Below, piece by piece: positions 1-17,410 of a DNA stretch of 41,595 bases. Position 1 is the stretch's first letter. Each line of letters begins with the position of its first letter. The translations under genes were made by a program, and so were the position numbers. The notes beneath the pieces were generated by a model, which saw nothing but the letters and a program-made list of their open reading frames with translations, had not been told where the DNA came from and made no database searches. The DNA is from Lachnospiraceae bacterium. Its GTDB lineage: Bacteria; Bacillota; Clostridia; Lachnospirales; Lachnospiraceae. Location: assembly GCA_009774155.1 (NCBI GenBank), contig VSNE01000460.1:1-41595 (forward strand), in the 5' to 3' direction.

Positions 1-488
1 CGGCAGTAGCGGTGCAGCCGTCCCCGGTCGAGGTCCAGTGCGCTTGCCAGAAGCATCTCGTGGCTTGCCATGATGTTGGCCAGGTTGCGGAGGGTTTGCG
101 GTGTGTGGCCTTTGGCACCGATGTGGATGTGGACCCCGCATCCTCTGGAGGCATCGCTCTTGGCGCCTGCGTGTCTGAGCTGCCTGCAAAGCTCCTGCAG
201 GGTTTCGATGTCGCCGTAGGTCAGGATCGGGGTGACCAGTTCGCATTTCTGCTCGTCCGGCCCCGCAATGGAAACATCCTTCTGGAATTTCCACTCGCGC
301 CCCTGTGTGTCCCAGGCTGACCAGGTGCTATAGCCGTTGCGCCCTGCGGTGTTCTCGTACCTGCCTGTGCCGAAGTAGGCGGCGGCAACCTTCGCTGCCT
401 TCTGGCGGGTGATGCTGTTCATCTCGACCTCGACCCCGATGGTCTGGTTCTTCATCTCTGCAATCTGCCTTGCTGTTTTCTCGTTCAC
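1..488 (-). CDS. Amidoligase-family protein, 5' part (runs off the window; absent from the ORF track)
   Basis: Hand translation from GTG at 488 after GGAGG: MNEKTARQIAEMKNQTIGVEVEMNS...WKFQKDVSI...KCELVTPIL...RGCGVHIHIG. GVEVE, ELVTP and CGVHIH are amidoligase-type motifs. Confidence 0.85.
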   Translation of the reverse strand, partial: MNEKTARQIAEMKNQTIGVEVEMNSITRQKAAKVAAAYFGTGRYENTAGRNGYSTWSAWDTQGREWKFQKDVSIAGPDEQKCELVTPILTYGDIETLQELCRQLRHAGAKSDASRGCGVHIHIGAKGHTPQTLRNLANIMASHEMLLASALDLDRGRLHRYC

Positions 489-534
489 TCTGAAATCCTC
501 CGTTTTCGTTTGGTGTGTTTTCCCTTTCGGTGTA

Positions 535-567
535 CACATATTCGCTCTAAAAGAGGATAATAGCAAG
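535..567 (-). promoter_or_regulatory. Putative phage promoter, copy 1 (TTGCTA-17 bp-GAATAT)
   Basis: CTTGCTATT-N10-AGAGCGAATATGTG on the minus strand. Both blocks recur with identical spacing at 1591-1623. Confidence 0.6.
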
Positions 568-618
568 GCCATTTTCGATAATATACTACACAAAGATGAC
601 CGCAATATATTGTGTAGT

Positions 619-867
619 TTACACCATTTTACCACCATCTGATGTGTTCTTGACCTTCCGGCACAGGTCTTCTCCGAACGCCACGGAAAGGCCGCTGCCG
701 TTGTCCCAGGCGACCATGATGGAGCCGATATCATCCACGCCCATCACAGTGCCCTGTGTGCCGATTGGCGGCGCCTGGGGATCGTCCATCCGCAGCAGTT
801 CTACACGGGTGCCTGCAGGATACTCTCTGCGGATGCGCTCTACAATTTCCTTACTCGGAAACCGCAT
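619..867 (-). CDS. DUF4314-like phage protein
   Basis: YPAGTRVELLRMDDPQAPPIGTQGTVMGVDDIGSIMVAWDNGSGL. ATG at 867 preceded by GGAGGTG. Confidence 0.8.
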   Translation of the reverse strand: MRFPSKEIVERIRREYPAGTRVELLRMDDPQAPPIGTQGTVMGVDDIGSIMVAWDNGSGLSVAFGEDLCRKVKNTSDGGKMV

Positions 868-1561
868 GGTCAGCACCTCCATTCTTGAATGCTGAGGAAC
901 CGGAGAGGTTCTTCAGCAGGATCTTGCGTTCGACTTTGTATTCGCTGCCGATGAAGCCCAAGCGCAGGAGAAAGCAGCGGAAGGCGTACTTCTCATTATC
1001 CACCGCTTTCTCCGTGACCGTCACGCGCTTGGCGTTTTTGCTCATCTCGCAGAGTGCGGAAATGAAATGGGTGTAGGCCTTGACCGCATCGGCGTCCGGC
1101 AGCTCCGGGAACCAGGGAAATGCTACCCGGTCTTCTTGAATCTCAATTGGAAGTTTGCTAACACCGAGCGCCTTCTTAATCAGGCTACCCTTGGCATCCA
1201 GCAGCTTGGTGAGGTTGCCTACCGCCACCTTGTCCAGCGGAATCTCCACCGTCAGCCCCACCGTTTCGCTCTGTGGCTCGGTTTCGCTTTCTTCGGATAA
1301 TTCCTCGGAGAGCTGTTCCTCGCCGTCCTGTGCCTCGCATTCAAAGCCTGCGGCGGTGATAGCTTCAAGTACCTGCTCGACCTCCTCGCTGTCAGCGCGG
1401 TCGTCAAACAGGAGCGTCCCATCCTTGGTGACCGTGAAGTAGTCGATCTCATAATTGCAGGTGGGCATGAATTTGTATTCTGCCCTGGCACCTGTGGCAT
1501 CCGAAATGACCTTGACCAGCTCCTTGCGCTTTGCGCCTGTCACATTGTATCTGATTTTCAT
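851..1561 (-). CDS. Conserved phage accessory protein (often labelled virulence-related protein)
   Basis: 236 aa with AGGAGG RBS. C-terminal NEKYAFRCFLLRLGFIG...RKILLKNLSGSSAFK is typical of this prophage family. Confidence 0.75.
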   Translation of the reverse strand: MKIRYNVTGAKRKELVKVISDATGARAEYKFMPTCNYEIDYFTVTKDGTLLFDDRADSEEVEQVLEAITAAGFECEAQDGEEQLSEELSEESETEPQSETVGLTVEIPLDKVAVGNLTKLLDAKGSLIKKALGVSKLPIEIQEDRVAFPWFPELPDADAVKAYTHFISALCEMSKNAKRVTVTEKAVDNEKYAFRCFLLRLGFIGSEYKVERKILLKNLSGSSAFKNGGADHAVSE

Positions 1562-1590
1562 GTGCGAAAACCTCCTTTGTTTTTGGTAGT

Positions 1591-1623
1591 CACATATTCG
1601 CTCTGAACCCCTGAAATAGCAAG
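1591..1623 (-). promoter_or_regulatory. Putative phage promoter, copy 2
   Basis: Same two blocks and spacing as 535-567, about 30 bp upstream of the 1561 start. Confidence 0.6.
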
Positions 1624-1660
1624 CAATTTCCGCACATTTTGCTGTAGAATAGCTGCCGGA

Positions 1661-3598
1661 TCATTCGCCGGATAACTGTGCATAGTACACGATGCCGGAA
1701 AGCACAAAACAGACGTTAGGCAGCGCCACTCCGTTGCCCCACATTTTGTATTCCGCAGAATCGGAGTGAGGGTCTTTCAGCCACTTGATGATCTGATTGC
1801 GGCTCTTCGGCTTGGAGGAAGCTCCCATGATCCTCCGGTGTGTCTCAAACACCTCCGTCCAGAACTCGATCTCTTCCTCGGTCGGTTCGTCAGTCTCTAA
1901 ATTGGAACACCACCAGTCCGGGAACCCTTGCAGTCTGGCACATTCGGTAGGCGTCAGTCTGCGAACGATGTAGTCAGGCTCTTTGGATACGGTAGGCGGA
2001 TCTTTGAAATCTGTAGCGACCAACGTTTCCGTCACATCATCATCCGTAAAATTGGTGTGAAAGGAACTCTTGCTTGAATGATAGATAGGCTGTCCGACCG
2101 CTCCCGGTCCTTTGGACACCATCGTTGGCTCGATCTCTGTTTCCACCGTGATTCCGAACTTGGCATTCCGTCCCATGTTGTATGTGGCACGGTCGATTCC
2201 GTAGGCTACCGCATGACGGTCGGTAGCATCCAGCGTGAAGGACACATCCTCATTGACGCCGCTGCCCTGGGGACCGTTCTTGTCGGATCTTCCGATCATG
2301 GAACCCTGCACAGCCACCACAGCCATGCCGCCCTGGTTGCAGGAGGGATTGCCGCCGCCCCTGTCCAAACAGCGGGAAGTGTCCGCTTCATAAAAACTGC
2401 TGTGCGGATTGTCCGATTGCATGGCGTGGCTCTGCTTGGAGCAGATGCCGTAGACCTTCGGCACAAATACCGTCTGGTCATTGTTGCAGCCGAGGGTAGC
2501 GGATTTGTTCTCCTGAATTAATGCACCCTTGCCGCCGCCCTCACAACCGGAGCGGATCTTCAGCGTCTTTGGCGTTTCCACCACGAAGGGCTGATTGTTG
2601 CCGCCCGTTCCGTAGGTAGACATGACCGTTGGTGCCGTCTTCAATGGACCGGTGTATCTGGTGTCCTGGCTATGGTTCTCATAGACTGCTGCAGGGACTG
2701 TTCCTGCCCGGAGGGTGGGAGAGGTTTCCTCCTCGTAACCGATGGAGCGGCTGTGTGCGGAATGCTCGGTGCAAAATCCTGCCGATTCCATCACGCAGGG
2801 AGGATGATGAGCTTCTGCCCGGAGAGTGCAGGTGACGCCGTCCGTTACATCCATACGGTTTCCGCCCTGGTCATTCAGGCAGACGCAGCCTGCCGCTCCA
2901 GAGCCTTTTTCAGAAGCTCCGGCAGCTCCTTGCCACGAACGGAAGCCCTGCGGAGTATACCCAGACACGCCTTCGGACTCAAATAGTATTTTTCCGGCAC
3001 TCCCGCCTGCAAGATCTGCGACAAGGTAGATACGTTTTCTGCGTTGGGGAACTCCCCAGTACTGCGCATCAAATACCCGCCATGCGAGACTGAAATCGTC
3101 TGCCATGATCTCTCCGGCGGTCGGCCACTTCTCAGGTCGAGGAGTATGAATTTCGTATCCTTTGACCGAGCAGACCTCTTCGAGGACGGACTGGAAGTCC
3201 GCACCCTTGTTGGAGCTGAACGCGCCGGGGACGTTCTCCCAGACGATGTATCTTGGATATCTGCCATTGGTTTTACACCTCATTTCCTTTACGATTCTTA
3301 TTGCCTCATAAAAGAGGTTGCTTCGTGAGCCGGCAAGCCCGGCTCTTTTCCCGGCGATGCTCATGTCCTGGCAGGGTGAGCCGAAGGTGATGATATCCAC
3401 CGGCTCAATCTTCCCGCCATCCATCCGGGAGACATCGCCGTAATGCTTCATAAACAGCAGCCTTTTGGTAGTCACCCGGATAGGAAACGGCTCGATCTCC
3501 GAAGCCCACACAGGGGTAATGCCGGAGATCAAGCCGCCTAAAGGAAAACCGCCGGAGCCGTCAAACAGGCTGCCGAGGGTCAGTTTATTCTGTTCCAT
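1661..3598 (-). CDS. C5-cytosine DNA methyltransferase with a long multi-TRD variable region
   Basis: Motif I LFDGSGG, IV GSPCQ, VI ENVPG, VIII QRRKRIY, IX RRLTPTECARLQGFP, X YKMWGNGV. ATG at 3598 after AGGAGG. Confidence 0.93.
   Translation of the reverse strand: MEQNKLTLGSLFDGSGGFPLGGLISGITPVWASEIEPFPIRVTTKRLLFMKHYGDVSRMDGGKIEPVDIITFGSPCQDMSIAGKRAGLAGSRSNLFYEAIRIVKEMRCKTNGRYPRYIVWENVPGAFSSNKGADFQSVLEEVCSVKGYEIHTPRPEKWPTAGEIMADDFSLAWRVFDAQYWGVPQRRKRIYLVADLAGGSAGKILFESEGVSGYTPQGFRSWQGAAGASEKGSGAAGCVCLNDQGGNRMDVTDGVTCTLRAEAHHPPCVMESAGFCTEHSAHSRSIGYEEETSPTLRAGTVPAAVYENHSQDTRYTGPLKTAPTVMSTYGTGGNNQPFVVETPKTLKIRSGCEGGGKGALIQENKSATLGCNNDQTVFVPKVYGICSKQSHAMQSDNPHSSFYEADTSRCLDRGGGNPSCNQGGMAVVAVQGSMIGRSDKNGPQGSGVNEDVSFTLDATDRHAVAYGIDRATYNMGRNAKFGITVETEIEPTMVSKGPGAVGQPIYHSSKSSFHTNFTDDDVTETLVATDFKDPPTVSKEPDYIVRRLTPTECARLQGFPDWWCSNLETDEPTEEEIEFWTEVFETHRRIMGASSKPKSRNQIIKWLKDPHSDSAEYKMWGNGVALPNVCFVLSGIVYYAQLSGE
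2875..3267 (-). CDS. Nested +1-frame ORF inside the C5 methylase, candidate small (beta-type) subunit
   Basis: GAGGTG 8 nt before the ATG. C-terminal LSQILQAGVPEKYYLSPKACLGILRRA resembles the post-motif-VIII segment of C5 methylases. Confidence 0.65.
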   Translation of the reverse strand: MADIQDTSSGRTSPARSAPTRVRTSSPSSKRSARSKDTKFILLDLRSGRPPERSWQTISVSHGGYLMRSTGEFPNAENVSTLSQILQAGVPEKYYLSPKACLGILRRASVRGKELPELLKKALERQAASA

Positions 3599-4823
3599 CC
3601 GTGACCTCCTCATAGCTGTATGTCTTACCGCCCCGCAGGACGCTCACGCCATCCGCAGAGCCGACCTGCTCGATGTAGCGGTTTACGATGACATCGCAGA
3701 ACTTTTCGTCCAGCTCGATGGTGCGGCAGATGCGGTCGGTCTGCTCACAGGCAATGAGGGTAGAACCGGAACCGCCGAAAGGGTCAAGCACCACTGAGTT
3801 TGCCATACTGGAGTTGCCGATGGGATAAGCCAGCAGCGGGATCGGCTTCATGGTGGGATGGTCACCGTTCTTCTTGGGCTTGTCAAACTCCCAGACGGTG
3901 GTTTCCTTCCTGCCCGTGTACCACTGGTGCTTGCCGTTTTTCTTCCAACCGTACAGCACAGGCTCATGCTGCCACTGGTAGGGAGAGCGTCCAAGGACAA
4001 GGGACTGCTTCTTCCAGATGCAGCAGCCGGATAAATAAAATCCCGCATCGGCAAACGCCCTGCGGAAGTTTAAGCCTTCGGTGTCGGCGTGGAACACATA
4101 GATGGATGCGTCCGCCGCCATGACCGACTCCATATTCTGAAAAGCGGCAAGCAGAAACTCATAGAATTTCTCGCCTGCCATGTTGTCGTTTTTGATCTTG
4201 CCCGCCGAACCCTCATAGTTGACGTTGTAAGGCGGATCGGTGATCACCAGGTTTGCTTTGACGCCATCCATGAGCGTGGTGTATGTTTCAGTCTTCGTGG
4301 AGTCTCCGCATACCAGCCGGTGCCTGCCAAGCGTCCATACGTCACCGCTTTTACTGAACACCGGCTTTTGCAGCTCTGCGTCCACATCGAAATCATCCTC
4401 TTTAGCCTCAGTTCCATCATCAAACAGAGCCGCCAGCTCCTTTTCATCAAAGCCGGTGAGCAGGGGATCAAAGTCCATGCCCTGCAAAGACTCGATCTCT
4501 ACTCGCAGAAGCTCCTCATCCCATCCGGCGTCCATCGCCATGCGGTTGTCGGCAATGATGTATGCTTTCTTCTGCGCCTCGGTAAGGTGGTCGGCAAACA
4601 CACACGGAACTTCCTTGATGCCTTCCTCCTTTGCCGCCATTATTCTGCCGTGGCCTGCAATCACGCCATAGTCGCGGTCAATGATGACAGGGTTGATAAA
4701 GCCGAACTCCCGGAGGGAGGAGCGGAGCTTCGTAATCTGCTCCGGGGAGTGGGTGCGGGCGTTGTTCACATAGGGCACCAGTTTGCTGATTGGCACCAGC
4801 TGCATTTCCGTTGTTGTTTTCAT
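3585..4823 (-). CDS. ParB-like N-terminal domain fused to an N4/N6 DNA methyltransferase
   Basis: ParB-like NNARTHS...FGFINPVIID...IAGHGR, then DPPY, HPTMKP and LDPFGGSGST. ATGA overlap with the upstream gene. Confidence 0.92.
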   Translation of the reverse strand: MKTTTEMQLVPISKLVPYVNNARTHSPEQITKLRSSLREFGFINPVIIDRDYGVIAGHGRIMAAKEEGIKEVPCVFADHLTEAQKKAYIIADNRMAMDAGWDEELLRVEIESLQGMDFDPLLTGFDEKELAALFDDGTEAKEDDFDVDAELQKPVFSKSGDVWTLGRHRLVCGDSTKTETYTTLMDGVKANLVITDPPYNVNYEGSAGKIKNDNMAGEKFYEFLLAAFQNMESVMAADASIYVFHADTEGLNFRRAFADAGFYLSGCCIWKKQSLVLGRSPYQWQHEPVLYGWKKNGKHQWYTGRKETTVWEFDKPKKNGDHPTMKPIPLLAYPIGNSSMANSVVLDPFGGSGSTLIACEQTDRICRTIELDEKFCDVIVNRYIEQVGSADGVSVLRGGKTYSYEEVTDGTE

Positions 4824-5605
4824 CGCACCAGCCCCCATTCCGCAAATTTCTCAAAGCCGCCAAGGGACTGGATGTATTTCCGGGCAGTCTCCACGATCTC
4901 CGCATAGGGAATGCCGTCCACGGTATCGTCCCCAATGGCGCAGGCAAGCTCCACGGGCTTTCCCGTTTCCTGGGCTTTCAGCCAGGCGTAGATATTGACC
5001 GACACATCCGCTTTGGACAGGTCTTTACCATGCAGACCGCCGCCCGTGACAGAATCTGCCATATCGCTACCCAGCTTGCGGTTGGTTGCACCTGTGTCCA
5101 CATCCGTGCCGCCCGTCCAGTCTCCCAGAGGGTTGATCTCGGCGTGAGGATACACTTCCTTGAGGTGATAGATCTTGGCGTTGCTCTGGCAGAGAATGAG
5201 CCTTGCGCCGTCCAGAATGTATTTCCCGTCATAGGGATAAGTGTGATACACACTTTTGGCGATCTCGCAGAGTGCTTTCTGCTCCTCGGTCACAGGCATC
5301 CCTTTGAAGATGCCGTTGTCGCCGCAGCGGATTCCGTCTGCCTGGTTATTGGCGAGGTGTCCGTCCTGCGGAACTTCCACATAGTCCGTGTGCAGATTTC
5401 CTGCGATGCGATGGACGATCCCGGTCACCTCATCCAAAGAGATGTGTACCGATGTTTCCGCAATGATATGGCAGACGCCGTGACCGATGAGAACCTCCAC
5501 GGCGATCCTTGGATTTTCTTCTTTTCTGTACGCCGCATCCACCAGAGCGCCGGCAATACGGTCAGCCACCTTGTCCGGGTGGCACGGATTTACTTTCTCA
5601 AACAT
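4820..5605 (-). CDS. Shortened S-adenosylmethionine synthetase (MetK-like), phage-borne
   Basis: HPDKVADRI, GDNG, DTGATNRKL and GGGLHGKDLSKAD match MetK signature segments. Only 261 aa. Confidence 0.85.
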   Translation of the reverse strand: MFEKVNPCHPDKVADRIAGALVDAAYRKEENPRIAVEVLIGHGVCHIIAETSVHISLDEVTGIVHRIAGNLHTDYVEVPQDGHLANNQADGIRCGDNGIFKGMPVTEEQKALCEIAKSVYHTYPYDGKYILDGARLILCQSNAKIYHLKEVYPHAEINPLGDWTGGTDVDTGATNRKLGSDMADSVTGGGLHGKDLSKADVSVNIYAWLKAQETGKPVELACAIGDDTVDGIPYAEIVETARKYIQSLGGFEKFAEWGLVR

Positions 5606-5609
5606 GATT

Positions 5610-6158
5610 TCACCCCTTCCTTGCCCGGAGCAGACGCTCCATCAAATCATCCTGAGGAGAAACGTCCCCGTAATCGGTGCTGCAGTTTTCCTTCACGATC
5701 TGGAAGATCTCGTTCCAGAGCCGCACTGCCTGGTTCATGTAGTTAATGCCGATGTTGATGAACGGGGACGGGATCGGCTTCTGGGTGGTCGGGTGCTTGG
5801 AGAGGAAGCCCATGCGGTTGGTCATCTCCTCGCACTGAATCCAGCGGGCGCTGCACATGGCGTAACGCTCCAATAGCTGGGGCGACACCTTCGCCGCACA
5901 GCCCACCTTCCTTAACCACTCCCAGGTTTCCGTGTATATCTCCTCCGCCTGGAGCGTACTACCGTCACGCTGCTCGGCGGAGAGGAACTCATGGGGCTTT
6001 GGCATATCGACACCCTCGACTTCGGGAATATCCAGCACTTCCAATCTGCGCCCGCCCGGATTGCCGTTCTCGGCTTTCTCCCTGACAGCGGATTTCTTCC
6101 TTCCCGCACCGGGTCTCGCACCGCCGCGCCCGCCTGTGTTATTGGATTTTGTCGGCAT
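5610..6158 (-). CDS. P27-family terminase small subunit
   Basis: GGRGGARPGAGRK N-terminus, LLERYAMCSARW, and DDLMERLL C-terminus. Lies downstream of HNH; GAGGTG RBS. Confidence 0.85.
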   Translation of the reverse strand: MPTKSNNTGGRGGARPGAGRKKSAVREKAENGNPGGRRLEVLDIPEVEGVDMPKPHEFLSAEQRDGSTLQAEEIYTETWEWLRKVGCAAKVSPQLLERYAMCSARWIQCEEMTNRMGFLSKHPTTQKPIPSPFINIGINYMNQAVRLWNEIFQIVKENCSTDYGDVSPQDDLMERLLRARKG

Positions 6159-6204
6159 TTTCTCACCTCTTTTCCGCAAAAATAGAGCGACCGCTATCGG
6201 CCGC

Positions 6205-6292
6205 CGTCAATTACCCTTTTGATTTCGCCTTTTTCGCGCACGAAGCCCCAGGCCGCTGTCCGCGTACAGGACTCGCAGAGATTTTGACCGCC
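6205..6292 (-). other. Putative cos/packaging region
   Basis: Non-coding gap between HNH and terS with GGGCGGTCAAAATCTCT...GACAGCGGCCTGGGG...CGCGAAAAAGGCGAAATCAAAAGGG. This is the usual cos position in HNH-terS phages. Confidence 0.5.
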
Positions 6293-6640
6293 CTACCGGT
6301 CGCCAAGGTCGTGGTGGATCTTGGTATGGCAGGAACGGCAAAGGCTCATCAGATTGTCCCTTGCATGAGTGCCGCCCTGAGAGATGGGAACGATGTGGTG
6401 TACCTCATCCACAGGAGTCAGCCGTCCTTCCTTCAGACACATCTCACAGAGAGGATGCGCCGCAGCATAGCGGTCACGGATGCGTTTCCAGGCTCTGCCG
6501 TACTTCTTATTTACGTCCGCACTGCGTTCGTATTTGTTGTACTGCCTGCGGGCGGCTGCTTCGTGTTCCTTGCAATACTGACCGTCCGTGAGGTTGGGAC
6601 AGCCGGGGTAGGAGCATGGCCGCTTTGGTTTCCTTGGCAT
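6293..6640 (-). CDS. HNH endonuclease (terminase-associated)
   Basis: CEMC...EVHHIVPISQGGTHARDNLMSLCRSCHTKIH. ATG at 6640 after GGAGGTG. Confidence 0.92.
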   Translation of the reverse strand: MPRKPKRPCSYPGCPNLTDGQYCKEHEAAARRQYNKYERSADVNKKYGRAWKRIRDRYAAAHPLCEMCLKEGRLTPVDEVHHIVPISQGGTHARDNLMSLCRSCHTKIHHDLGDR

Positions 6641-6660
6641 CGTCTCACCTCCTTGGGGCA

Positions 6661-6697
6661 TAAGAAAAGCCCCCACAGGATCGCTCCCATGAAGGCT
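6661..6697 (-). terminator. Hairpin with GCGA loop and short U tract in the late-operon leader
   Basis: AGCCTTCATGGGA-GCGA-TCCTGTGGGGGCT followed by TTTCTT. Confidence 0.5.
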
Positions 6698-6724
6698 GTT
6701 TTTGTATTCTACTTCGCTATTGTA

Positions 6725-6770
6725 ATGATATCACAGGACGGGAGTGCCATACTGTGCCAAACCGTGCCAA
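6725..6770 (-). promoter_or_regulatory. Putative late promoter with activator-binding repeats
   Basis: TTGGCACGGT TTGGCACAGT ATGGCAC (10-bp period), then extended -10 TGaTATCAT, directly after the activator gene. Confidence 0.65.
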
Positions 6771-6773
6771 CTT

Positions 6774-7184
6774 TCAATCCGGGACAGAAAAATTCTGGAG
6801 AGCCGACCCGTGTATGCGGTGTACCGTGCGAAGCGACACGTTCAGCATCCGGGATATCTCCTCCCAGGAGCAGTTGTCCAGGTAACGGTAACGGAGTACC
6901 AGCTGCTCCTCACGGCTGGCAAGCCTGTCGATTGCCGCATTGATGGTTTCCTTGAGACACACCAGATACGCCACCTTTTCCGCCACATCCCTCTGGATGG
7001 CGTCGATTTTCTCAAGGCACCGGACAAAAGGGGCTTCTGTCGGCTTGTTTGGATTGTAGTGCGGTTCGAAATTACTGCCTGAGACGCTGCTCGATAAATC
7101 CCTCCAGTAGTCAATCTCACGCAGACGGCAGTTTATAAGGGCATCCAGGTGCCGCGCCTGGTTCAGATACTCTTTTGCGGTCAT
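6774..7184 (-). CDS. Late transcriptional activator (ArpU/RinA/DUF1492-like, sigma region 4 HTH)
   Basis: MTAKEYLNQA...EQLVLRYRYLDNCSWEEISRMLNVSLRTVHRIHGSAL. Sits just before HNH-terS. Confidence 0.85.
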   Translation of the reverse strand: MTAKEYLNQARHLDALINCRLREIDYWRDLSSSVSGSNFEPHYNPNKPTEAPFVRCLEKIDAIQRDVAEKVAYLVCLKETINAAIDRLASREEQLVLRYRYLDNCSWEEISRMLNVSLRTVHRIHGSALQNFSVPD

Positions 7185-7408
7185 GCGTCCACCTCCTTCT
7201 GCAGGGAGCGGATCAGCATCTCGCCTTTCACATCTGTGAGTGCCGAATACCACTGCGAACGGAAGAACCGCTCAATTTCGGCTTTATCCGCTTGCGCCGC
7301 CCTATTACGGGAGTTGGCTTTCAGGCTTTTCAGCGCCATGCGGTAATCCTTCACAGCTTGCAGGATGATGGCGTTCGCAAGGTCCTCGTAAATCGTGATA
7401 TTGCTCAT
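7181..7408 (-). CDS. Conserved small phage protein
   Basis: 75 aa with GGAGGTG RBS and ATGA overlap. YEDLANAIILQAVKDYR...IERFFRSQW. Confidence 0.8.
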   Translation of the reverse strand: MSNITIYEDLANAIILQAVKDYRMALKSLKANSRNRAAQADKAEIERFFRSQWYSALTDVKGEMLIRSLQKEVDA

Positions 7409-7430
7409 ATTCGCACCTCCGAAATTTTGA

Positions 7431-7470
7431 TCCTCGGATTGGCACGGATTTTCTTAGATTGTCTCAGATT
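7431..7470. repeat. Four 10-bp-period degenerate repeats
   Basis: tcctcggatt ggcacggatt ttcttagatt gtctcagatt. Confidence 0.6.
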
Positions 7471-8828
7471 TTCAAGTCCGCTTTCACGGCATCGATCAGG
7501 GCCGTCTGGGTATGCTCCTTTTTGGAGAGGGCTTTCATGATGCGTTCGTCAATGGTGCCCTTTGTGACGATGTGTTGTACCACCACAGTTTCAGAAGTCT
7601 GCCCCTGCCGCCAGAGCCGCGCAATGGTCTGCTGATAAAGCTCCAGGCTCCAGGTCAGTCCGAACCACACGATGGCCGAACCGCCGCTCTGGAGATTCAG
7701 CCCATGCCCGGCGGAAGCGGGATGGATCAGCGCCACCGGCAACTCGCCATTGTTCCATCTGCGGATACTGGCGGCGTCATCCAGCTTTGAGAACGGGATA
7801 TGCAGCTTTCGCAGCCTTTCCGAAATACGGGTCAGGTCATGCTTGAACCAGTAAGCCACCAGAAGCGGTTTGCTGTTGGCGGCTTCGATGATGTCCTCCA
7901 AAGCGTCAAGCTTGCGGTCGTGGATGCGGATGGTTTCGCCGCCGTCATCATAGATTGCGCCGTTCGCCATCTGGGAGAGTTTCCCGGAGAGGGAGGCGGC
8001 GTTGGCGGCAGTGATCTCTGCGTCGCCCAGCGACAGCACCAGCTCCTGTTTCAAGTCCGTGTATTTTTTCTGTTCATCCTCGGAAAGCCGAACCGTGTAT
8101 TCACTGCTGACCAGCTTTGGCATATGCAGGTGGTCGGCGGACTTCATAGAGATAGTGATGTCCGAAATCTGTCGGTAGATGGCGTCCTCTGCATAGGGCA
8201 GGGGTTTGTAGGAGTAGATGACCTGGCCGTTTCGCTTGTCCGGCGTGAAGTAATCGGTGCGGTACTTGGTGATGAACCGTCCAAGCCGCTGCCCCATGTC
8301 CAGGATGCGAAACTCCGCCCACAGATCCATCAGACCGTTGGACGCAGGAGTGCCGGTCAGTCCGACGATGCGGCTCACCTTTGGTCTGACCTTTAACAGT
8401 GACTTGAACCGCTTTGTCTGGTGATTCTTGAACGAGGATAGCTCATCGATCACCACCATATCGAAGTCAAAGGGAATGCCGCTCTCATCAATGAGCCACT
8501 GGACGTTTTCCCGGTTGATGATGTAGATGTCAGCGCGTCTCATCAATGCCGACCGGCGCTGGGCTTCCGTCCCGACAGCCACGGAGCAGATGAGATCCTG
8601 AAGGTGATCCCACTTATCCGCTTCAGCCGTCCATGTGTCCCGCGCCACTCTTAAGGGTGCGATGACCAGCACTTTATGGACCTCGAAGCTGTCAAACAGC
8701 AGGTCGGCTATGGCTGTCAGCGTGATGCTGGTTTTTCCCAGGCCGCAGTCTAAGAAGATAGCGGCTGCGGGGTGTGTCTCAATGTAATCCACCGCATATT
8801 TCTGATATTCATGAGGTTCGTATCTCAT
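7464..8828 (-). CDS. SNF2-family (SF2) phage helicase
   Basis: LDCGLGKT, DELS, TGTP, GHGLNLQ and ARLWRQGQ motifs. Likely start MRYEPHEYQ at 8828. Confidence 0.92.
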   Translation of the reverse strand: MRYEPHEYQKYAVDYIETHPAAAIFLDCGLGKTSITLTAIADLLFDSFEVHKVLVIAPLRVARDTWTAEADKWDHLQDLICSVAVGTEAQRRSALMRRADIYIINRENVQWLIDESGIPFDFDMVVIDELSSFKNHQTKRFKSLLKVRPKVSRIVGLTGTPASNGLMDLWAEFRILDMGQRLGRFITKYRTDYFTPDKRNGQVIYSYKPLPYAEDAIYRQISDITISMKSADHLHMPKLVSSEYTVRLSEDEQKKYTDLKQELVLSLGDAEITAANAASLSGKLSQMANGAIYDDGGETIRIHDRKLDALEDIIEAANSKPLLVAYWFKHDLTRISERLRKLHIPFSKLDDAASIRRWNNGELPVALIHPASAGHGLNLQSGGSAIVWFGLTWSLELYQQTIARLWRQGQTSETVVVQHIVTKGTIDERIMKALSKKEHTQTALIDAVKADLKI

Positions 8829-9090
8829 CCAGTATCCCTCCAATCTGCTCCGTATCGTCCAGCACATACACCGGAAATCCCAGCCGCCGCAAAAGCCTGT
8901 GGCGGGAAAGCTGCAGAGGTCGCGGCTTTTCTCCCAGAGCCTTGACTTCAACAAAGCCTATCCGTCCATTCGGCAGCAGCACCATGCGGTCCGGCATACC
9001 GTCAAAACCGGGAGATACGAGCTTGGGGCAGATGCCGCCGGCCTTTTTGACCATCTGCGTCAGTTTCTTTTCAATTTCTTTTTCTCGCAT
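8809..9090 (-). CDS. VRR-NUC domain nuclease
   Basis: EKEIEKKL...GMPDRMVL...FVEVK...RPLQ. Confidence 0.9.
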   Translation of the reverse strand: MREKEIEKKLTQMVKKAGGICPKLVSPGFDGMPDRMVLLPNGRIGFVEVKALGEKPRPLQLSRHRLLRRLGFPVYVLDDTEQIGGILDEIRTS

Positions 9091-9308
9091 CTGACATATT
9101 CCTCCCAGCATTCCTTAAAGGTCTCAAGGCAGGCATCACAAGCGCCGCTTCTGACCAGATGATTATGGATGATGTCATGCCATCCCTTGAATTTGCAGGC
9201 ACGATTCCTGGGGAAGTGTTCGGAATCCCTCGCCATATCTCTTGCGAGATCTCCTGCGGGAGAGTCACTCGTTTTGTAGTTTCTTATCATGTAATTGTAG
9301 AAGTTCAT
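9060..9308 (-). CDS. YozE/SAM-like small protein
   Basis: MNFYNYM...AGDLARDMARDSEHFP...FKECWEEY. GGAGGT RBS. Confidence 0.7.
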   Translation of the reverse strand: MNFYNYMIRNYKTSDSPAGDLARDMARDSEHFPRNRACKFKGWHDIIHNHLVRSGACDACLETFKECWEEYVRCEKKKLKRN

Positions 9309-9339
9309 GTCATTACCTCCGTGTTCTTAAAAACCTGAA

Positions 9340-9580
9340 AATCCTTACGCGCGTGCATATGCGTGATTTACGGGTTCTGTACAGTCTTTTTTATACATTT
9401 TCAATTTGTATGCTTTTTTAGGAACACAGGAACGAAGCCTGTAAAGTTGCCTTGCGGCGGCACATTCGGTGTGTTCCTGGCGGCGTTCCCGGAGTCTCCC
9501 CTGGGAACACTGCCGGAAGTCGGGAACTGTTCCTTATTCGCTCCGTTCCCGAAAAATCAGTCAGGAACATCGCCGGGAAC
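9340..9580. repeat. Putative replication origin: ten GGAAC/GTTCC pentamers beside an AT-rich tract
   Basis: GGAAC at 9421, 9429, 9504, 9523, 9564, 9576; GTTCC at 9473, 9485, 9529, 9545. T-rich 9385-9420. Immediately downstream of the primase/helicase. Confidence 0.6.
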
Positions 9581-11896
9581 AAAAACGAACTGGGGCCCGT
9601 AGGGCTTGACGCGCTCCTTTTTCTCCTTGCGCACCCAGCCGAGCTTGGTGAGCATGGCTGTGAGGTTGTTGGATTCTGCGCGGCCAAGGCTGCCCTGGTC
9701 TTTGCCGAAAAGCTCACACCAGATCTCCATATTGCAGACCCGTGTTCTGGCAACCGTACCCACACGGCCAATATTGTTCACTCCGGCGAGGAAGGAGCGG
9801 CGGTCGAACAGATCCATGCCGTCCCAATCCTCCGGGAGCAGGGTCTCCAGATACTCGCGCACCAGCCCTTCACGCTCATCGGACTCCAGGGCTTCCCGCT
9901 GTTCGCTTTTCGCCAGCATCTCCAGGTCGGGAGCAAGATGCAGCTTTTCGCCGTCCTTTACAAGCACCAGCACCTCCGCCCAGATCTGGCAGATATCCTC
10001 GGTGGTAAGTTCCCAGGAGTGTTTTATGCCGACGCCCGGCGTTTTGACCGGCCAGAACCGGCGGTTACCCGTGGTATCCCGCAGATAGCCGGACTCGGCA
10101 TTGGTGGTGCCAAAGAAGATACACTGCCTTGGGTGCGGCGTTGCCCGTCTGCCGAATGCGGCGCGGTAAATATCGTTCTGGCGGGAAAGGAAGGAGCGCA
10201 GCGTCTCCACCTCGGCTTTGCGAAGCCCCGCCAGCTCACCGATCTCCAGAATCCAATAGCCCTGCAGCTTCTCGGCAGCGGTCTTGTCCTTGGTGTCGCT
10301 CAGGTTCAGACTGTCGGAGAACCACTCTCCGGCAAGGCGGGAGATGAGGGTAGACTTGCCGATGCCCTGGGGACCGTTTAAGACCAGCATGGTATCAAAC
10401 TTCACACCCGGCTCCTGCACCCGGCGCACGGCGGCGCAGAGGGTCTTTCTGGTCACGGCACGGACGTAGGAATTATCCTCCGCACCCAGATAGTCGATGA
10501 GGAGCGTGTCCACACGGGGAACGCCATCCCATTCCGGCAGAGCCGCCAGATATTCGCGGATGGGATGGTAGGAGCGGTCATCTGCCACCTTGGTCACGGC
10601 GATCTGATAGTTGCGCTGGGAGAATGTACCGTAATGGGAGTCCACATAGCTGATCAGCTGTGCGTCATCGGCGTCCCGCCAATACTTGGACGGGTGCTTC
10701 CAGGGTACCTCGCCCTTGATTTCCATGCCGTCCAGCTGCTGGTTGAACACGATATTCTGGAGCTGCGGGTCATTCTGGAGGATGAGCGTGATGTTGTGGA
10801 GGTTGTTCTTTAGCACCGTGGAGCGGGGTTCATACTGGAAACGCTTCTGCCAGTCGGTATCCTCGCTGCCGGAGAAATCCGTCTCGGCGTCCGCCATTCT
10901 TTCGCTTGCCGCCAGCAGCTTTACCTCATCCTGCTGCATGGCGAACTCGCACATCGCCTTATAGGACGCTTTTTCGTCCAGATCGCCAAAGCGGTGGGTG
11001 CGGACGATGTCAAAGGCGTTGCACAGCTTGAGGTAAGCCGGGTCTTTGGCGTGGTGGCTGTATACGAATTTATCTTCCTTAATCTCCACACCCGCCATAC
11101 TGGAGGATGCGATCAGGTGCCAGCGGTTCTCATTGTCGGTCGGCTCATAGACATCGGAGAGAAATGTCTCCAGCGCCTTGCTGATGGGATAATAAGTGCG
11201 GTTGAACAGACCCACCACGCCCTCTTTGGTCAGCGGGTCCTGCACCTTCTGCTGTGCGGTGGTATTCGCCTTGCTTTCCCTGGAAGATGTGGGCAGTCTT
11301 GTAGGGTCGGTCCATTCCGGGTGCTTTGTGAGAATCGCATCGGGGTCGAGCCAGCCGCCGTCTGTCTCCTTATACACAAAGGAACCGTTAGCCGGCGTGG
11401 ACGGCCAGTACATCAGCTGATTGGGCTGGTAGGAACATTCGTCGAAATAGTCGATGCCCAGCATCTGAGCCAGATAGCGGGACACCGCCACAAATTCCTC
11501 CGGGGTCACATCCCTGGTCAGCGGGAATACCAGCCGGACGCGGGGATTCTCCTCTGTGCTGCTGTGAGTGGTGTACAGCGCAGAGGCATAGGGGCAGAGG
11601 GACTCATAGCTATCCAGAAAAGCGGCGTCAATGCGGTCGCCGTCAAGCGCCACCATCGAGCGGCTTTCCACCGTATCGACCTTGCGCCTGCCGCCCTTCA
11701 GAACGCCAGCCACAAAGCCGCCGTGGTCTTTGGCGGTGTCACGCTGGGCGCGGCTCATCTTCGCATATTCCTCGGCGGACTCGGTGGTGCGGATGGTCAC
11801 TTTGAGCCGCTCCTTTAGATTGTCAAATCGTATGGTCTTGTTGACCCATCTCTTTGCCTGCCGGTTGTTGCCGTAGGCGATGTTCAGTTCACGCAT
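9557..11896 (-). CDS. VapE/VirE-family primase-helicase
   Basis: N-terminal primpol-like LDGD...YTTHS...PRVRLVFPL. C-terminal GPQGIGKST Walker A, GTTN and TGNRRFWPV. Confidence 0.9.
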   Translation of the reverse strand: MRELNIAYGNNRQAKRWVNKTIRFDNLKERLKVTIRTTESAEEYAKMSRAQRDTAKDHGGFVAGVLKGGRRKVDTVESRSMVALDGDRIDAAFLDSYESLCPYASALYTTHSSTEENPRVRLVFPLTRDVTPEEFVAVSRYLAQMLGIDYFDECSYQPNQLMYWPSTPANGSFVYKETDGGWLDPDAILTKHPEWTDPTRLPTSSRESKANTTAQQKVQDPLTKEGVVGLFNRTYYPISKALETFLSDVYEPTDNENRWHLIASSSMAGVEIKEDKFVYSHHAKDPAYLKLCNAFDIVRTHRFGDLDEKASYKAMCEFAMQQDEVKLLAASERMADAETDFSGSEDTDWQKRFQYEPRSTVLKNNLHNITLILQNDPQLQNIVFNQQLDGMEIKGEVPWKHPSKYWRDADDAQLISYVDSHYGTFSQRNYQIAVTKVADDRSYHPIREYLAALPEWDGVPRVDTLLIDYLGAEDNSYVRAVTRKTLCAAVRRVQEPGVKFDTMLVLNGPQGIGKSTLISRLAGEWFSDSLNLSDTKDKTAAEKLQGYWILEIGELAGLRKAEVETLRSFLSRQNDIYRAAFGRRATPHPRQCIFFGTTNAESGYLRDTTGNRRFWPVKTPGVGIKHSWELTTEDICQIWAEVLVLVKDGEKLHLAPDLEMLAKSEQREALESDEREGLVREYLETLLPEDWDGMDLFDRRSFLAGVNNIGRVGTVARTRVCNMEIWCELFGKDQGSLGRAESNNLTAMLTKLGWVRKEKKERVKPYGPQFVFVPGDVPD

Positions 11897-12426
11897 AGTC
11901 GGTTACCTCCTCGCTCGTCGAAATAAACTCCATTTCGCTCACTTCCACAAAATTGTGAAAGTTCGCACATTCCGTTATTTCTCCTCTCCCAGAAAAGTCT
12001 AAAGTCTTTTCTGGGGTCCCTTTAGTAAAATATCTCAAACAGTAGTTCTTCCATTTGGCCCTGCGGATCTCCGCTTCCATGCCGGAAGAGATGTATTCTC
12101 CGAACACCCACACCTCGGAGCATTTGCTCATGAGGGCGTTTCCAAAGAACAGCCCCAGCTGGCGCTCCTTTGGATTGTCGTCACGCAGAAACTGCGGAAA
12201 CAGCAGATGCGGTGCAATGGGGATATACCCCGTGTCTACGGCGAAGCGGCTGTATCTCCGGGCGTTCTCCACGTTGGCTTCCACATCCCCGGCATAGGGT
12301 GAGCAGATGTAGACGATGGGACGGAAAGCGCGGAGGGCGCGTTCTTCCTTTTCTATATTGGTGAGGGCTTCATAGGTGGTGGGGTCGTAGTAGCCCTCGC
12401 TATTGAATTTGTTGATACTCATAGGC
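11889..12426 (-). CDS. DUF4406-like (nucleoside deoxyribosyltransferase-fold) phage protein with a C-terminal insertion
   Basis: VYICSPYAGD...IPIAPHL...CSEVWVFG...SSGMEAEI. Start near MPMSINKF (about 12420-12430) after GAGGT; exact codon approximate. Confidence 0.75.
11916..12020 (-). repeat. 105-bp structured (two-hairpin) in-frame insertion, REP/MITE-like
   Basis: CCCAGAAAAG..CTTTTCTGGG hairpin, then a GAAATAA..TTATTTC stem enclosing ACTTTCACAA/TTGTGGAAGT. Exactly 35 codons. Confidence 0.55.
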
Positions 12427-12435
12427 ATTACCTCG

Positions 12436-14376
12436 CTAATCTTTCTTGTAAAAATCGGTCTCGTAGCCATCTGCACGAAGCTGCAGTCCGTTTGCCCAGG
12501 GTGGAGTTCTGCCCATCTGGTCACAGACGGCCTGTAAGGACATCCGGCGGTCGGCTTCAATGACCACCTCGTCATGGATGTGCATGACGATGGAGCAATA
12601 GCGAAGGGTCTGCATGGCGTAGCAGAGGATATCGCGGGAGGTTGCCTGGACGATGTTTTCCACGAATTTGGGGCCGTAGCTGTCCAGACGCTCCCATTTC
12701 TTTGTGCCGCCAACGCCTTCATAGGTGATGCAGTCGCCGCCGAACTTGTTCGTCCCGATCTTGGGCTTGACATAGGCAAGATTCCTGCCGGACGGCAGGG
12801 TGATGAACAGCATTCCGTTTCTGGCGGAGAATACGATGCCGTGTGTTTTCGTGGTTGTCTTGCGGGTGACGGCGTCCATCACAGCGCGGTCAACCGCCCA
12901 CCAGAACTGCACGATTTTCGGATTCGCCTGTCGCCATGCGGAAACCAGGGCAGGAAGCTCGTCCTCGGACAGCCCCATCTCCAGTGCGCCCATCGCTTTC
13001 AGTGCGCCCACTGAGCCACCGTAGCCGAGAGCCAATTCGGCGATCTTGCCTTTTTGCCGCAGGTGGCCGTTGACGCCGTGCTTTTCTACGGGGACGCCGA
13101 ACATCTGGGATGCGCTGGCGCAGTAGATATCCTTGCCCTCAGCGAATACGTCCTGCCGCCATTTCTCGCCGGCAAGCCACGCAATCACCCTGGCTTCAAT
13201 CGCGGAGAAGTCCGCCACAATGAACTTCCTGTTTTTCTGCGGCACGAATGCCGTGCGAATCAGCTGGGAAAGGGTGTCCGGTACATCCTCATAGAGCATT
13301 TCCAGAGCGTCAAAGTCGCCTGCCCGGACAAGCCCTCTGGCTTCGGATAGATCGTCCAGATGGTTCTGCGGGAGATTCTGCATCTGAATGATACGGCCGG
13401 CCCAGCGCCCGGTGCGATTGGCTCCGTAAAACTGGAACATCCCTCTTGCCCGACCATCGGCACAGACGGCGATCTCCATTGCCTGATACTTTTTAACACT
13501 GGATTTCGCAAGTTGTTGGCGTAGGGTTAGTACCTTTTGAAGCTGAGGCGGCGCAGTTTTCAAAAGCTCCGCTACAGCCTTTTTGCCAAGGGTATCGGTC
13601 TCCACACCGTTATCCGCAAGCCACTGTTTCATCTGCTGTACCGAGTTGGGATTGTCCAGCGAGGTCAGTTCTTTCATCGCCTGGGTCAGCTCCGAGCGGG
13701 AGCGCCCGTCCATCTGAATGGCCTGCCGCACCAGTTTCATATCCAGACCCACGCCTCGGTCGTTGATCTCCTGGTCGAGATGGTATTCCTCCCAGACGCC
13801 GTCAGGCACGGGATACTTGGAGAGCCGCGCCTGGATGGACATCTCCGTCTCCACATCGCGGACGTTGTATCGCTTGAACGCCAGCCACTTGTCCGGGGCG
13901 TGTTCCGGTAGATTGCGGGTGCGCTGACCATTGGTCTTGGTTGGCGCACAGGGCTGGCAGAAATATTTGATGAGGTCTTTGCCTTCGGTCAGCTTTTGCT
14001 TTTCCAATCCGAGAACAGCCCCGACTCCCTCCAGGGATAAGGGTAGCCCCATATACGCCGCCCAGACCATCGAGCATTTCCAGGAGTCCGGCTCCAGATA
14101 GTCGCCGGTCGGATAGCCCAGAAAGCGTGACAGGCAGATGCGTTCAAAATTGGCATTGAAGGCCCACTTAGTTACCTTGTCATCCTCCAGAGCGCAAAGA
14201 ATCTCCGAGGGAATTTTCTCCCCGCAGGCAAGGTCTATCTGCTGTACGGAACCGCCGTCCACGCTGTAGGCAAAGAGCAGTATTTCAAAATCGGAAGACT
14301 CCACATAACGGTACACGCCTGTTTTGGCAAGGGGCTGGTCGCTATAGGTCTCCAGGTCGATTGATAAGGTTTGCAT
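12436..14376 (-). CDS. Phage family A DNA polymerase
   Basis: Exonuclease motifs IDLET and AFNANFE; polymerase motifs RTGRWAG, ADFSAIEAR, KIAELALGYG and HIHDE. Confidence 0.93.
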   Translation of the reverse strand: MQTLSIDLETYSDQPLAKTGVYRYVESSDFEILLFAYSVDGGSVQQIDLACGEKIPSEILCALEDDKVTKWAFNANFERICLSRFLGYPTGDYLEPDSWKCSMVWAAYMGLPLSLEGVGAVLGLEKQKLTEGKDLIKYFCQPCAPTKTNGQRTRNLPEHAPDKWLAFKRYNVRDVETEMSIQARLSKYPVPDGVWEEYHLDQEINDRGVGLDMKLVRQAIQMDGRSRSELTQAMKELTSLDNPNSVQQMKQWLADNGVETDTLGKKAVAELLKTAPPQLQKVLTLRQQLAKSSVKKYQAMEIAVCADGRARGMFQFYGANRTGRWAGRIIQMQNLPQNHLDDLSEARGLVRAGDFDALEMLYEDVPDTLSQLIRTAFVPQKNRKFIVADFSAIEARVIAWLAGEKWRQDVFAEGKDIYCASASQMFGVPVEKHGVNGHLRQKGKIAELALGYGGSVGALKAMGALEMGLSEDELPALVSAWRQANPKIVQFWWAVDRAVMDAVTRKTTTKTHGIVFSARNGMLFITLPSGRNLAYVKPKIGTNKFGGDCITYEGVGGTKKWERLDSYGPKFVENIVQATSRDILCYAMQTLRYCSIVMHIHDEVVIEADRRMSLQAVCDQMGRTPPWANGLQLRADGYETDFYKKD

Positions 14377-14402
14377 TTCGTCACTTCCTTCCATACCCCA
14401 AT

Positions 14403-14428
14403 AGGGCGGCAGATCGCTCCGCCGCCCT
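14403..14428 (-). other. Intergenic hairpin with GCGA loop, no U tract
   Basis: AGGGCGGCGGA-GCGA-TCTGCCGCCCT. Confidence 0.5.
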
Positions 14429-14440
14429 GGGGATTGGTTG

Positions 14441-14626
14441 TTATTTCTCCAGCAGCTTCATGCGGTTTTCGTGATACTCTGCGTCACGGGCCGCCTGTTC
14501 CCGCTCACGCTTTTCACGCTTGCGGTCATAGATGAAGGACTGGATACTGCTGATCAGAATGACTGCGCTGATGCACAGCCAGATGGCGAGAACTGCAAAA
14601 AGCAGAATTGTCTGAATCATTGTCAT
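14441..14626 (-). CDS. Small membrane-anchored protein
   Basis: Hydrophobic N-terminal helix and charged tail. GGAGGT RBS. Confidence 0.75.
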   Translation of the reverse strand: MTMIQTILLFAVLAIWLCISAVILISSIQSFIYDRKREKREREQAARDAEYHENRMKLLEK

Positions 14627-14646
14627 GGTCGTTTACCTCCCTTGTC

Positions 14647-15222
14647 TTAACCGAGGAAATCCTCGTCGTCATCAGTTGCGAAGTCGGCTTCAGCGCTGGC
14701 CTTGCCGCCCAGGGGTTCGCCGGGACGGATAAGCTGCAGGTTGTTCAGCCCGCAGGCGATGCCCTTGTTGCCGTTGCTGTTGAAGGCGTACAGGTTGATG
14801 GACGCCCTGCCGTACACGCCGGAATACACCTCGGAGCGGGTCAGCACGGGATTGCGGTCTGCGTCCACGATGCCGGGAGCAGTGGCGGAGTTGGCGTTGA
14901 TGAAGTAGGCGTTCGCATAGGCGGGATCATCGGGTCTTTCAATGTCGCCGTCTCTCAGCGGGGTCTTGATTGCGGAGAGAGGAGGTACGGAGCGGCCGTT
15001 GCCCTTCAGCTTGGCCTGTCCCTCCTGGTAGGCGGCTTCAATAGCGGCCTTGATTTTCGCCACCGTCTTGGTGTCGGACTTCGGGATGATCAGCGAAACC
15101 GAGTACTTCGGCGTGCCTCCGTTGATGGACTTGGGCTCCCAGACGTTGGCGTAGGACCAGCGGGTGTCGGGACCGGTGATGACCTTCATAGGGTTGTTGA
15201 CTCTGTTTGTGTTGTTAGCCAT
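14647..15222 (-). CDS. DUF2815 single-stranded DNA-binding protein (T7 gp2.5-like)
   Basis: RWSYANVWEPK...PLRDGD...VYSGVYGR...GLNNLQ, with acidic tail DDDEDFLG. Confidence 0.88.
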   Translation of the reverse strand: MANNTNRVNNPMKVITGPDTRWSYANVWEPKSINGGTPKYSVSLIIPKSDTKTVAKIKAAIEAAYQEGQAKLKGNGRSVPPLSAIKTPLRDGDIERPDDPAYANAYFINANSATAPGIVDADRNPVLTRSEVYSGVYGRASINLYAFNSNGNKGIACGLNNLQLIRPGEPLGGKASAEADFATDDDEDFLG

Positions 15223-15223
15223 A

Positions 15224-16351: not shown

Positions 16352-16658
16352 CCGTCATCACCTCCGCTTCGGCGAGCAATGCCTTGTAGTGTGCGGGGTC
16401 GATTTGTGACAGCTTGGATGCGCCGTACTTTTGAAGCAGGGCGCGGATCTCGGCGGTGTGTCCCTGGCGGGATTTGTCTGCAAGCACGGCTCGGACCTGC
16501 TCCAGCGTCAGTTCCGGTTCAGGCGGAGAAGCAGGAGCATCCTCTGCCTGCGGTTCACTGCTGAACATCTTCGTCAGCCAGTCAGCGGCATCCGAAATAA
16601 CAGCGGCAGCACTGCGAAGTTCTTCGATGGTCTGCGCCATATCGCTCATTCTGCTCAT
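16341..16658 (-). CDS. Conserved phage hypothetical protein
   Basis: 105 aa with GGAGG RBS. LTLEQVRAVLA...LLQKYGASKLS. Overlaps neighbours in operon fashion. Confidence 0.8.
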   Translation of the reverse strand: MSRMSDMAQTIEELRSAAAVISDAADWLTKMFSSEPQAEDAPASPPEPELTLEQVRAVLADKSRQGHTAEIRALLQKYGASKLSQIDPAHYKALLAEAEVMTDGS

Positions 16659-17406: not shown

Positions 17407-17410
17407 TTTC

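Follow-up and report, generated by a model that had tools for sequence, protein, structure and literature searches.

A conserved gene nested in the +1 frame of phage C5 cytosine methyltransferase genes and its possible role as an enzyme subunit

The DNA analysed here, referred to as the window, is the entire 41.6-kb contig VSNE01000460.1 of a 3.29-Mb draft genome of a Lachnospiraceae bacterium. It encodes a phage C5 cytosine DNA methyltransferase of 650 amino acids, counted from the first ATG (1661..3613 on the minus strand; ORF list, Pfam). Within this gene there is a second open reading frame (ORF) of 130 codons and a stop at 2875..3267 (-), which is read in the +1 frame and is very probably a real protein-coding gene, judging from sequence comparisons. 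The reading favoured here is that it is a genuine, internally initiated gene whose product is a small subunit of the phage methyltransferase, and we give this a probability of about 0.6. Even in very distant phages the nested gene accompanies a C5 methyltransferase gene.

The nested gene and its start signals

The nested ORF begins with an ATG at 3265..3267 (-) and ends with a TGA at 2875..2877 (-), as read from the ORF list and the sequence. It lies in the +1 frame because 3613-3267 = 346 = 3x115+1, and it extends from 10 codons 5' of motif VI of the host methyltransferase to 56 codons past the start of motif VIII. A Shine-Dalgarno-like GAGGTG at 3276..3281 (-) stands 8 nt 5' of the nested ATG in the context aaaggaaATGAGGTGtaaaaccaATG and is supplied by the main-frame codons ATG-AGG-TG (Met-Arg-Cys). 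A +1-frame TGA at 3280..3282 (-), five codons 5' of the ATG, closes the frame upstream. An earlier note on this DNA had claimed a 130-codon +1 ORF with a strong Shine-Dalgarno sequence 8 nt before its ATG inside the C5 gene, and the sequence is as that note described it.

Homologues were gathered with the main protein as the query, so the sample is not conditioned on the nested ORF. The first set consisted of the best 80 of at least 620 viral contigs, with 53-98% identity to the main protein, and a second set added 80. These 160 IMG/VR loci were reduced to 118 distinct, complete ones by dropping 11 fragments lacking the stretch from ENV to QxRxR, 2 loci cut at the 5' end and 29 nucleotide duplicates. 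The nested frame is open in all 118 and is 129-142 codons long. The start codon, 10 codons before ENV, is ATG in 115 of the loci and GTG in the other 3, and a Shine-Dalgarno-like site is present in every one of them. The main-frame residue at the nested start varies (Asn AAT, Asp GAT, Gly GGT) and the third base T before G is kept; ATGAGG is found in 116/118 loci, so that the Arg codon is AGG. In most related loci the +1 open stretch starts 4 codons ahead of the ATG. The nested frame therefore has what an overlapping gene is expected to have, a conserved start codon and ribosome-binding site of its own, and the conservation of frame, start codon (ATG or GTG in 118/118) and Shine-Dalgarno site across homologues that the earlier note had named as a check on its proposal is borne out.

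The openness of the frame was compared with chance by reshuffling synonymous codons 2000 times, with the main-frame protein and the codon usage of the gene held constant. The scored set (n=84) comprised the window and 83 of the loci L001-L084, which are 80 viral loci and four annotated phage or plasmid records; L068 was left out since its 5' end is cut. There are no +1 stops in any of the 84 sequences, where synonymous reshuffling gives an expectation of 0.7-5.2 for each. For individual genes the probability of a stop-free frame is 0.004 in Streptococcus phage Javan105 (39% G+C) and 0.0055 in an Enterobacter prophage, and for an E. coli phage-plasmid none of the 2000 reshuffles was stop-free. 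Among diverged homologues the alternative frame thus stays open more often than the main frame would lead one to expect, and the frequent +1-frame stops in close homologues that, according to the earlier note, would tell against the gene occur neither in the 84 scored sequences nor in the 118 distinct loci.

Selection and structure along the nested protein

Selection was examined on a codon alignment of 34 representatives with less than 90% identity. The nested protein falls into two parts. Its N-terminal part, residues 2-74 (3046..3264 (-)), lies over motifs VI-VIII of the main frame, is under weak constraint and is predicted to be disordered; the nested frame reads GRTS from the bases that encode motif VI (ENV, 3230..3238 (-)) and PNAEN from those of motif VIII (QRRKR, 3032..3046 (-)). 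Its C-terminal module, residues ~75-130 (2878..3045 (-), ending ...STLSQILQAGVPEKYYLSPKACLGILRRASVRGKELPELLKKALERQAASA), has three predicted helices. Over the last ~55 nested codons amino-acid identity is 0.74-0.92 in the +1 frame versus 0.36-0.87 in the main frame. Synonymous-codon identity of the main frame, in 10-codon windows, is 0.81-0.94 over the module as against 0.25-0.52 outside the nested ORF, and the ratio of observed to expected identity falls from 1.55-2.51 in the module to 1.0-1.5 over the first two thirds of the nested ORF and 0.84-1.17 beyond it. The depressed synonymous rates over the nested ORF that the earlier note had proposed as a test are thus found, most strongly in the module.

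The nucleotide diversity at main codon positions 1/2/3 agrees with this division. In the flanks it is 0.21/0.11/0.55 and 0.30/0.18/0.60, with the peak at position 3, and over the module it is 0.355/0.156/0.153, with the peak at main position 1, which is nested codon position 3. In the N-terminal nested part the peak is still at main codon position 3. The periodicity, the synonymous depression and the higher +1 identity together indicate that the C-terminal module is under purifying selection at the protein level. Over the module the +1 frame is the selected frame and the main frame encodes a variable linker, STLSQILQAGVPEKYYLSPKACLGILRRASVRGKELPELLKKALERQ, and the N-terminal ~75 nested codons are mostly merely kept open across motifs VI-VIII. 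The signature of an overlapping gene, depressed main-frame synonymous change with nested-frame periodicity, is accordingly strong for residues ~75-130 and weak for residues 1-74.

It might be argued that there is no second protein at all, and that constraints at the nucleotide level (RNA structure, codon bias) or chance in a G+C-rich gene keep the frame open. The window taken alone lends itself to such an explanation, as its +1 frame is stop-free in 11.8% of the 2000 synonymous reshuffles (P = 0.118) and the main gene has many other alternative-frame ORFs of 60-150 codons. Neither RNA structure nor codon bias is easily reconciled with the three-base periodicity of variation in the +1 frame or with an amino-acid conservation that is higher there than in the main frame; moreover, the conservation spans genes of 39% to 59% G+C, and three different main-frame residues at the nested start all leave the start codon intact. 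This explanation is almost certainly wrong.

An AlphaFold2 (AF2) prediction based on 52 homologues places helices at residues 79-86, 98-111 and 117-129, with a predicted local distance difference test score (pLDDT) of 79-91 over residues 91-130. Residues 1-78 are predicted to be disordered, with an N-terminal pLDDT of 48-61 and no secondary structure. A helical module behind a disordered N-terminus is what would be expected for a piece that needs a partner.

Split and fused forms of the methyltransferase

An indication of what the nested protein may do comes from its natural fusions. The main chain is ordered as motifs I-VIII, a linker, several modules resembling target recognition domains (TRDs, of the ...TL.A... 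type), and then motifs IX and X. In many database proteins the nested sequence continues in frame into TRD modules, motif IX and motif X, and one cluster of this kind has 216 member sequences. The DNA of this 216-member lineage was compared in 13 genomes of Lachnospiraceae and related Clostridia. Among 12 related Lachnospiraceae loci (L167-L178), the TRD-IX-X half is on the nested frame in 4 and on the main frame in 8. In three of the split loci (L168-L170) the catalytic ORF with motifs I-VIII ends 62-77 codons past motif VIII, and the nested ORF, from its usual ATG, continues for 426-427 codons through the TRDs, IX and X; in L168 the resulting alpha and beta chains have 280 and 427 amino acids. 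L167 has the same layout with the long ORF broken again further downstream. In L171-L178 the main frame continues and the nested ORF ends at 126-130 codons.

The split and fused forms differ by a single nucleotide at a poly-G tract directly behind the module, ~60 nt 5' of the codons for LDFAHAD in L167-L178. Split forms have G8, or G7 with an extra A; 7 of the 8 fused forms have G7, and the remaining one, L171, has G4. With one more base in the tract, the TRD-IX-X half becomes part of the nested gene and no longer of the catalytic one. A switch by slippage, fixed alleles and errors in assembling the homopolymer are all possible explanations. In the window the arrangement is the fused one, with a complete main chain and a free module, and there is no G tract at its junction. 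A third arrangement is found in mycobacteriophage Dove (L181, 1041..2159), where the enzyme is spread over three ORFs: gene 107 (motifs I-VIII, 248 amino acids), the nested ORF (1213..1692, 159 amino acids, GTG start, +1 frame, unannotated) and gene 108 (116 amino acids, motifs IX-X). The same three parts in differing covalent arrangements are what would be expected if the parts assemble into one enzyme, and that one nucleotide chooses which chain carries the recognition and IX-X half points to the nested protein being a piece of that enzyme.

Two other kinds of joined protein were seen. In P0007 and P0064, beta-type proteins (nested sequence, TRDs, IX and X) continue in frame into motif I (SLFDGIGGF...) of a next methyltransferase; they may reflect two methyltransferase genes in tandem with no stop between them, or a circular permutation. 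In P0164 (410 amino acids) a phage integrase (PF14659/PF14657), and in P0185 (652 amino acids) a family-A DNA polymerase (PF00476), runs in frame into a complete nested ORF at ...RPME / ...KPME. These joins lie just before the usual nested start and may be recombination breakpoints, insertions at the nested 5' edge or chimeric assemblies.

Hundreds of database proteins of ~240 amino acids (e.g. P0155, P0163, P0188, P0225 and P0237) have a methyltransferase N-terminus that is shifted into the nested frame at varied points. Such proteins raise the question of whether ribosomes arrive at the module through a programmed +1 frameshift near motif VIII, giving a protein of ~240 amino acids with motifs I-VIII and the module. 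A shift right after motif VIII would put LSQIL...KYYLS directly behind RIYLV, the database proteins share this kind of architecture, and the overlap has GGAAAAATACTA, an A-run followed by ATA and CTA, which are rarely used codons in many bacteria. However, the junctions are at many different places, mostly 5' of motif VIII, and scattered junctions indicate scattered mutations and not one recoding site; as evidence for recoding the chimeras were therefore rejected. A frameshift would also have no need of the 80 open +1 codons upstream or of an ATG or GTG with GAGG, yet these are kept in 118/118 loci, and selection in the +1 frame is already present inside motif VIII (nested Pro74 is at least 90% conserved), upstream of any useful shift site. 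With its own conserved start the nested frame does not have the features of a programmed +1 frameshift, for which a shift site was sought by inspection only, and we consider this route highly improbable.

Distribution among phages

A phmmer search with the 130-residue product against 1.84 billion representatives gave 3479 matches at E <= 1e-3, 1113 of them at E <= 1e-10. A nested ORF in the +1 frame was confirmed by coordinates in Streptococcus phage Javan105 (131 codons, 39% G+C), in the Enterobacter prophage (144 codons) and in the E. coli phage-plasmid (165 codons). Coordinates likewise place it in the dmt gene of coliphage P1 (AF234172.1; 162 codons, unannotated), in mycobacteriophage Dove (159 codons) and in pneumococcal phage MM1, where it is annotated as ORF14 within ORF13. 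Of 301 genomes sampled evenly from the window's phylum, 15 have the nested gene, a frequency that fits a prophage-borne gene. The nested gene is almost never annotated. The window's genome has a second, partial copy of the nested ORF (locus L166, G000:C388:7260-7499 (+), covering profile positions 1-85) where a different contig ends, which implies a second related methyltransferase gene or prophage.

Comparison with known systems

Several two-chain methyltransferases provide a frame of reference. According to two reports (PMC2836561, PMC3404938), M.EcoHK31I from E. coli HK31 (YGGCCR) is a C5 methyltransferase of two polypeptides, the first 42 residues of its small chain are dispensable in vitro, and its activity was lost when the internal start codons were silently removed and regained when beta was supplied in trans. 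Its small chain is encoded wholly inside the gene of the large chain in another frame (PMC2836561), and the same arrangement is found in the window. The dispensable 42 residues resemble the first ~75 residues of the nested protein of the window, which are weakly constrained and disordered. The two systems differ in that the large chain of M.EcoHK31I is described as lacking motif IX, which the small chain supplies, whereas motif IX of the window (VRRLTPTECARLQGFPDWWCSNL, 1898..1966 (-)) is in the main frame, where main residues 545-567 were aligned to M.HhaI 271-293 with phmmer. The earlier note had pointed out this difference correctly, and since motif IX is on the main chain the window enzyme is not classed with M.EcoHK31I.

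M.AquI, according to PMC3404938, has two subunits split in the variable region, the large chain carrying motifs I-VIII and the small chain the rest with IX-X. This layout is shared by the split relatives such as L168, with the difference that their beta begins in the +1 frame at a point ~400 nt into alpha. In the window, where one frame carries motifs I-X, there is no such split; it is seen only in relatives such as L168-L170 and Dove.

An annotated likeness is found in phage MM1 (AJ302074.2), whose ORF14 of 141 amino acids, labelled 'putative methyltransferase', lies inside the C5 methylase ORF13 in the +1 frame. ORF14 is related to the nested protein of the window (BLASTP E 4e-6, residues 62-99, SLSDILEE..DERYFLS). 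MM1 differs in that ORF13 is a short single-TRD enzyme of 385 amino acids and ORF14 ends soon after YFLS, without the KAC.GILRRA..RGK.LP helices. In P1 dmt a 162-codon ATG-started ORF in the +1 frame of the C5 half ends in ...LLSQVLEQTSIPQRYFLSSKACAGILRRGEKRRKSLPPLLQMALQ, which is the same module. The nested ORF is unannotated here, within a C5-Dam fusion gene that has a single recognition region, and it starts further upstream; in the related phage-plasmid L004 the start is 24 codons before ENV, compared with 10 in the window.

Bacillus phages SPR, phi3T and rho11s have multispecific C5 methyltransferases with one catalytic core and tandem recognition modules. The main frame of the window also has several TRD-like modules between VIII and IX and is similar to these enzymes in this respect. 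To our knowledge no nested gene has been reported for them.

Proposed role and points against it

In the mechanism proposed here, ribosomes would start independently at an internal GAGG-N(8-10)-ATG in the methyltransferase mRNA and make a protein of ~130 residues. The first ~75 residues would be a largely unconstrained, disordered run-up forced by the overprinting of motifs VI-VIII, and the last ~55 residues, the conserved three-helix module, would be a detached structural piece of the C5 methyltransferase, its small subunit. The module would be placed between the catalytic N-terminal domain (I-VIII) and the recognition and C-terminal half (TRDs, IX, X). We infer from the sequences that the nested protein is translated, that it binds the enzyme and that it is needed for activity. 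The suggestion of the earlier note, a heterodimeric methylase whose small subunit is missed by annotation, is upheld in part: a conserved, unannotated gene is present and it has natural fusions to the TRD-IX-X half, and these strengthen the subunit role as the best available reading.

A number of observations weigh against a subunit role, in addition to the reshuffling result for the window alone. With all ten motifs present in the main frame, there is no obvious need for a further piece. The nested family profile had no matches among PDB sequences at E <= 10, Pfam had no family for the nested protein at E <= 1, and Foldseek found no match in the PDB at E <= 0.001; a wide VIA-align search returned only generic helical repeats (best Z 4.6). 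When the nested profile was compared with the main profile by hhalign there was no similarity (probability 0.1), which gives no support to a reading of the module as a degenerate motif IX. With no match to a Pfam family, a structure, a fold or the main protein, the view that the module replaces a canonical methyltransferase segment is conjectural. Of the long nested-TRD-IX-X forms, six that were looked up are singleton clusters on 1-4 contigs, and some of these forms could be broken genes or homopolymer assembly errors. The ~240-residue chimeras mostly lose motif VIII and some of their clusters have 11-18 members, which indicates that natural populations contain frameshifted alleles that are probably inactive. 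Contigs from RNA libraries cover 1661..4838 at 90-99% identity in four metatranscriptome runs from three studies, one contig being 26.7 kb long, and such contigs cannot show transcription, strand or frame.

Other searches gave little more. The nested protein has a weak match in PHROGs to phrog_16143, 'DNA methyltransferase' (E 7e-4), and in the ESM Atlas it matches only clusters of 132-160-residue 'hypothetical proteins'. The AF2 model of a beta-type protein, P0270, has a mean pLDDT of 44.7 and is confident only over the module, too poor a model for comparing folds. The earlier note had taken LSQIL...KYYLS to be the segment that usually follows motif VIII; this was not confirmed, as no solved methyltransferase, Pfam family or fold matched it.

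These results leave some room for a different function of a nested gene that is real and translated. Its product could regulate the methylation module as a small DNA-binding protein, or it could have an anti-defence or other phage function and only share the locus. In favour of this are the basic, helical nature of the small module (RRASVRGKELPELLKKALERQ; helices at 98-111 and 117-129), the presence of motifs I-X in the main frame without it, and the lack of a demonstrable similarity to any methyltransferase part. On the other hand, the nested gene was never seen apart from a C5 methyltransferase gene in phages of Firmicutes, enterobacteria, Vibrio and mycobacteria, and its in-frame fusions to the TRD-IX-X half, including the 216-member cluster, are hard to reconcile with an unrelated function. 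We consider such a function unlikely, with a weight that is well above that of the frameshift, and retain a small subunit of the methyltransferase as the favoured role.

The host gene and its surroundings

The main protein is a member of PF00145, with residues 13-199 matching the family at E 1.2e-41 and motifs I, IV (PCQ), VI (ENV), VIII (QxRxR), IX and X all in one chain. In phmmer comparisons with the M.HhaI and M.HaeIII structures, its motif VIII was aligned to M.HhaI 144-170. Its homologues begin at MEQNK, nt 3598. The nearest phage record for the methyltransferase locus is a gut phage of the proposed order Heliusvirales; the accessible portions of the Heliusvirales paper mention a methyltransferase and describe no nested gene.

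Upstream of the C5 gene is a gene for a ParB_N and N6/N4 DNA methyltransferase of 417 amino acids (3585..4838 (-); Pfam PF01555, PF02195), whose 3' end overlaps the start of the C5 gene. The same order of the two methyltransferase genes is found in Javan105 and in NatCom_11578. Downstream of the methyltransferase, a gene for 236 amino acids (851..1561 (-)) has counterparts at the same position in Javan105 ('virulence-related protein') and NatCom_11578 ('hypothetical'). In relatives from the RNA libraries there are paired +1/-1 indels, 5-11 nt apart, at window positions 3333/3344 and 3409/3414. They are short compensated frameshifts of the main frame and lie upstream of the nested ORF. A scan of the whole window (1..41595) gave no tRNA gene and no Rfam family at threshold.

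Significance

Literature searches gave no description of a conserved nested family of this kind; the precedents found were M.EcoHK31I and the bare annotation of ORF14 in MM1. Standard bacterial and phage annotation discards genes nested on the same strand, and thousands of methyltransferase genes of phages and prophages contain this one (3479 cluster representatives), that of the model phage P1 among them. The family is a clean natural system for the study of overprinting, with ~55 codons selected in the nested frame over a relaxed main-frame linker and ~75 codons merely open across catalytic motifs.

A wider proposal can be made tentatively, and we would sooner doubt it than accept it as it stands. 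Phage 'orphan' C5 methyltransferases of a very large class, P1 Dmt among them, may be enzymes of two or three polypeptides with an obligatory hidden +1 product, and poly-G slippage may in some lineages re-wire the recognition half, giving a heritable switch of assembly or specificity. If the nested product is part of the enzyme, the single-chain picture of the phage orphan C5 methyltransferases would be incomplete. Recoding or codon-optimising such a gene, for example for pre-methylating DNA against restriction barriers, would then silently delete a subunit, and if the hidden product is obligatory, an essential part is missing from, or would be destroyed in, the annotated, cloned or codon-optimised forms of these genes.

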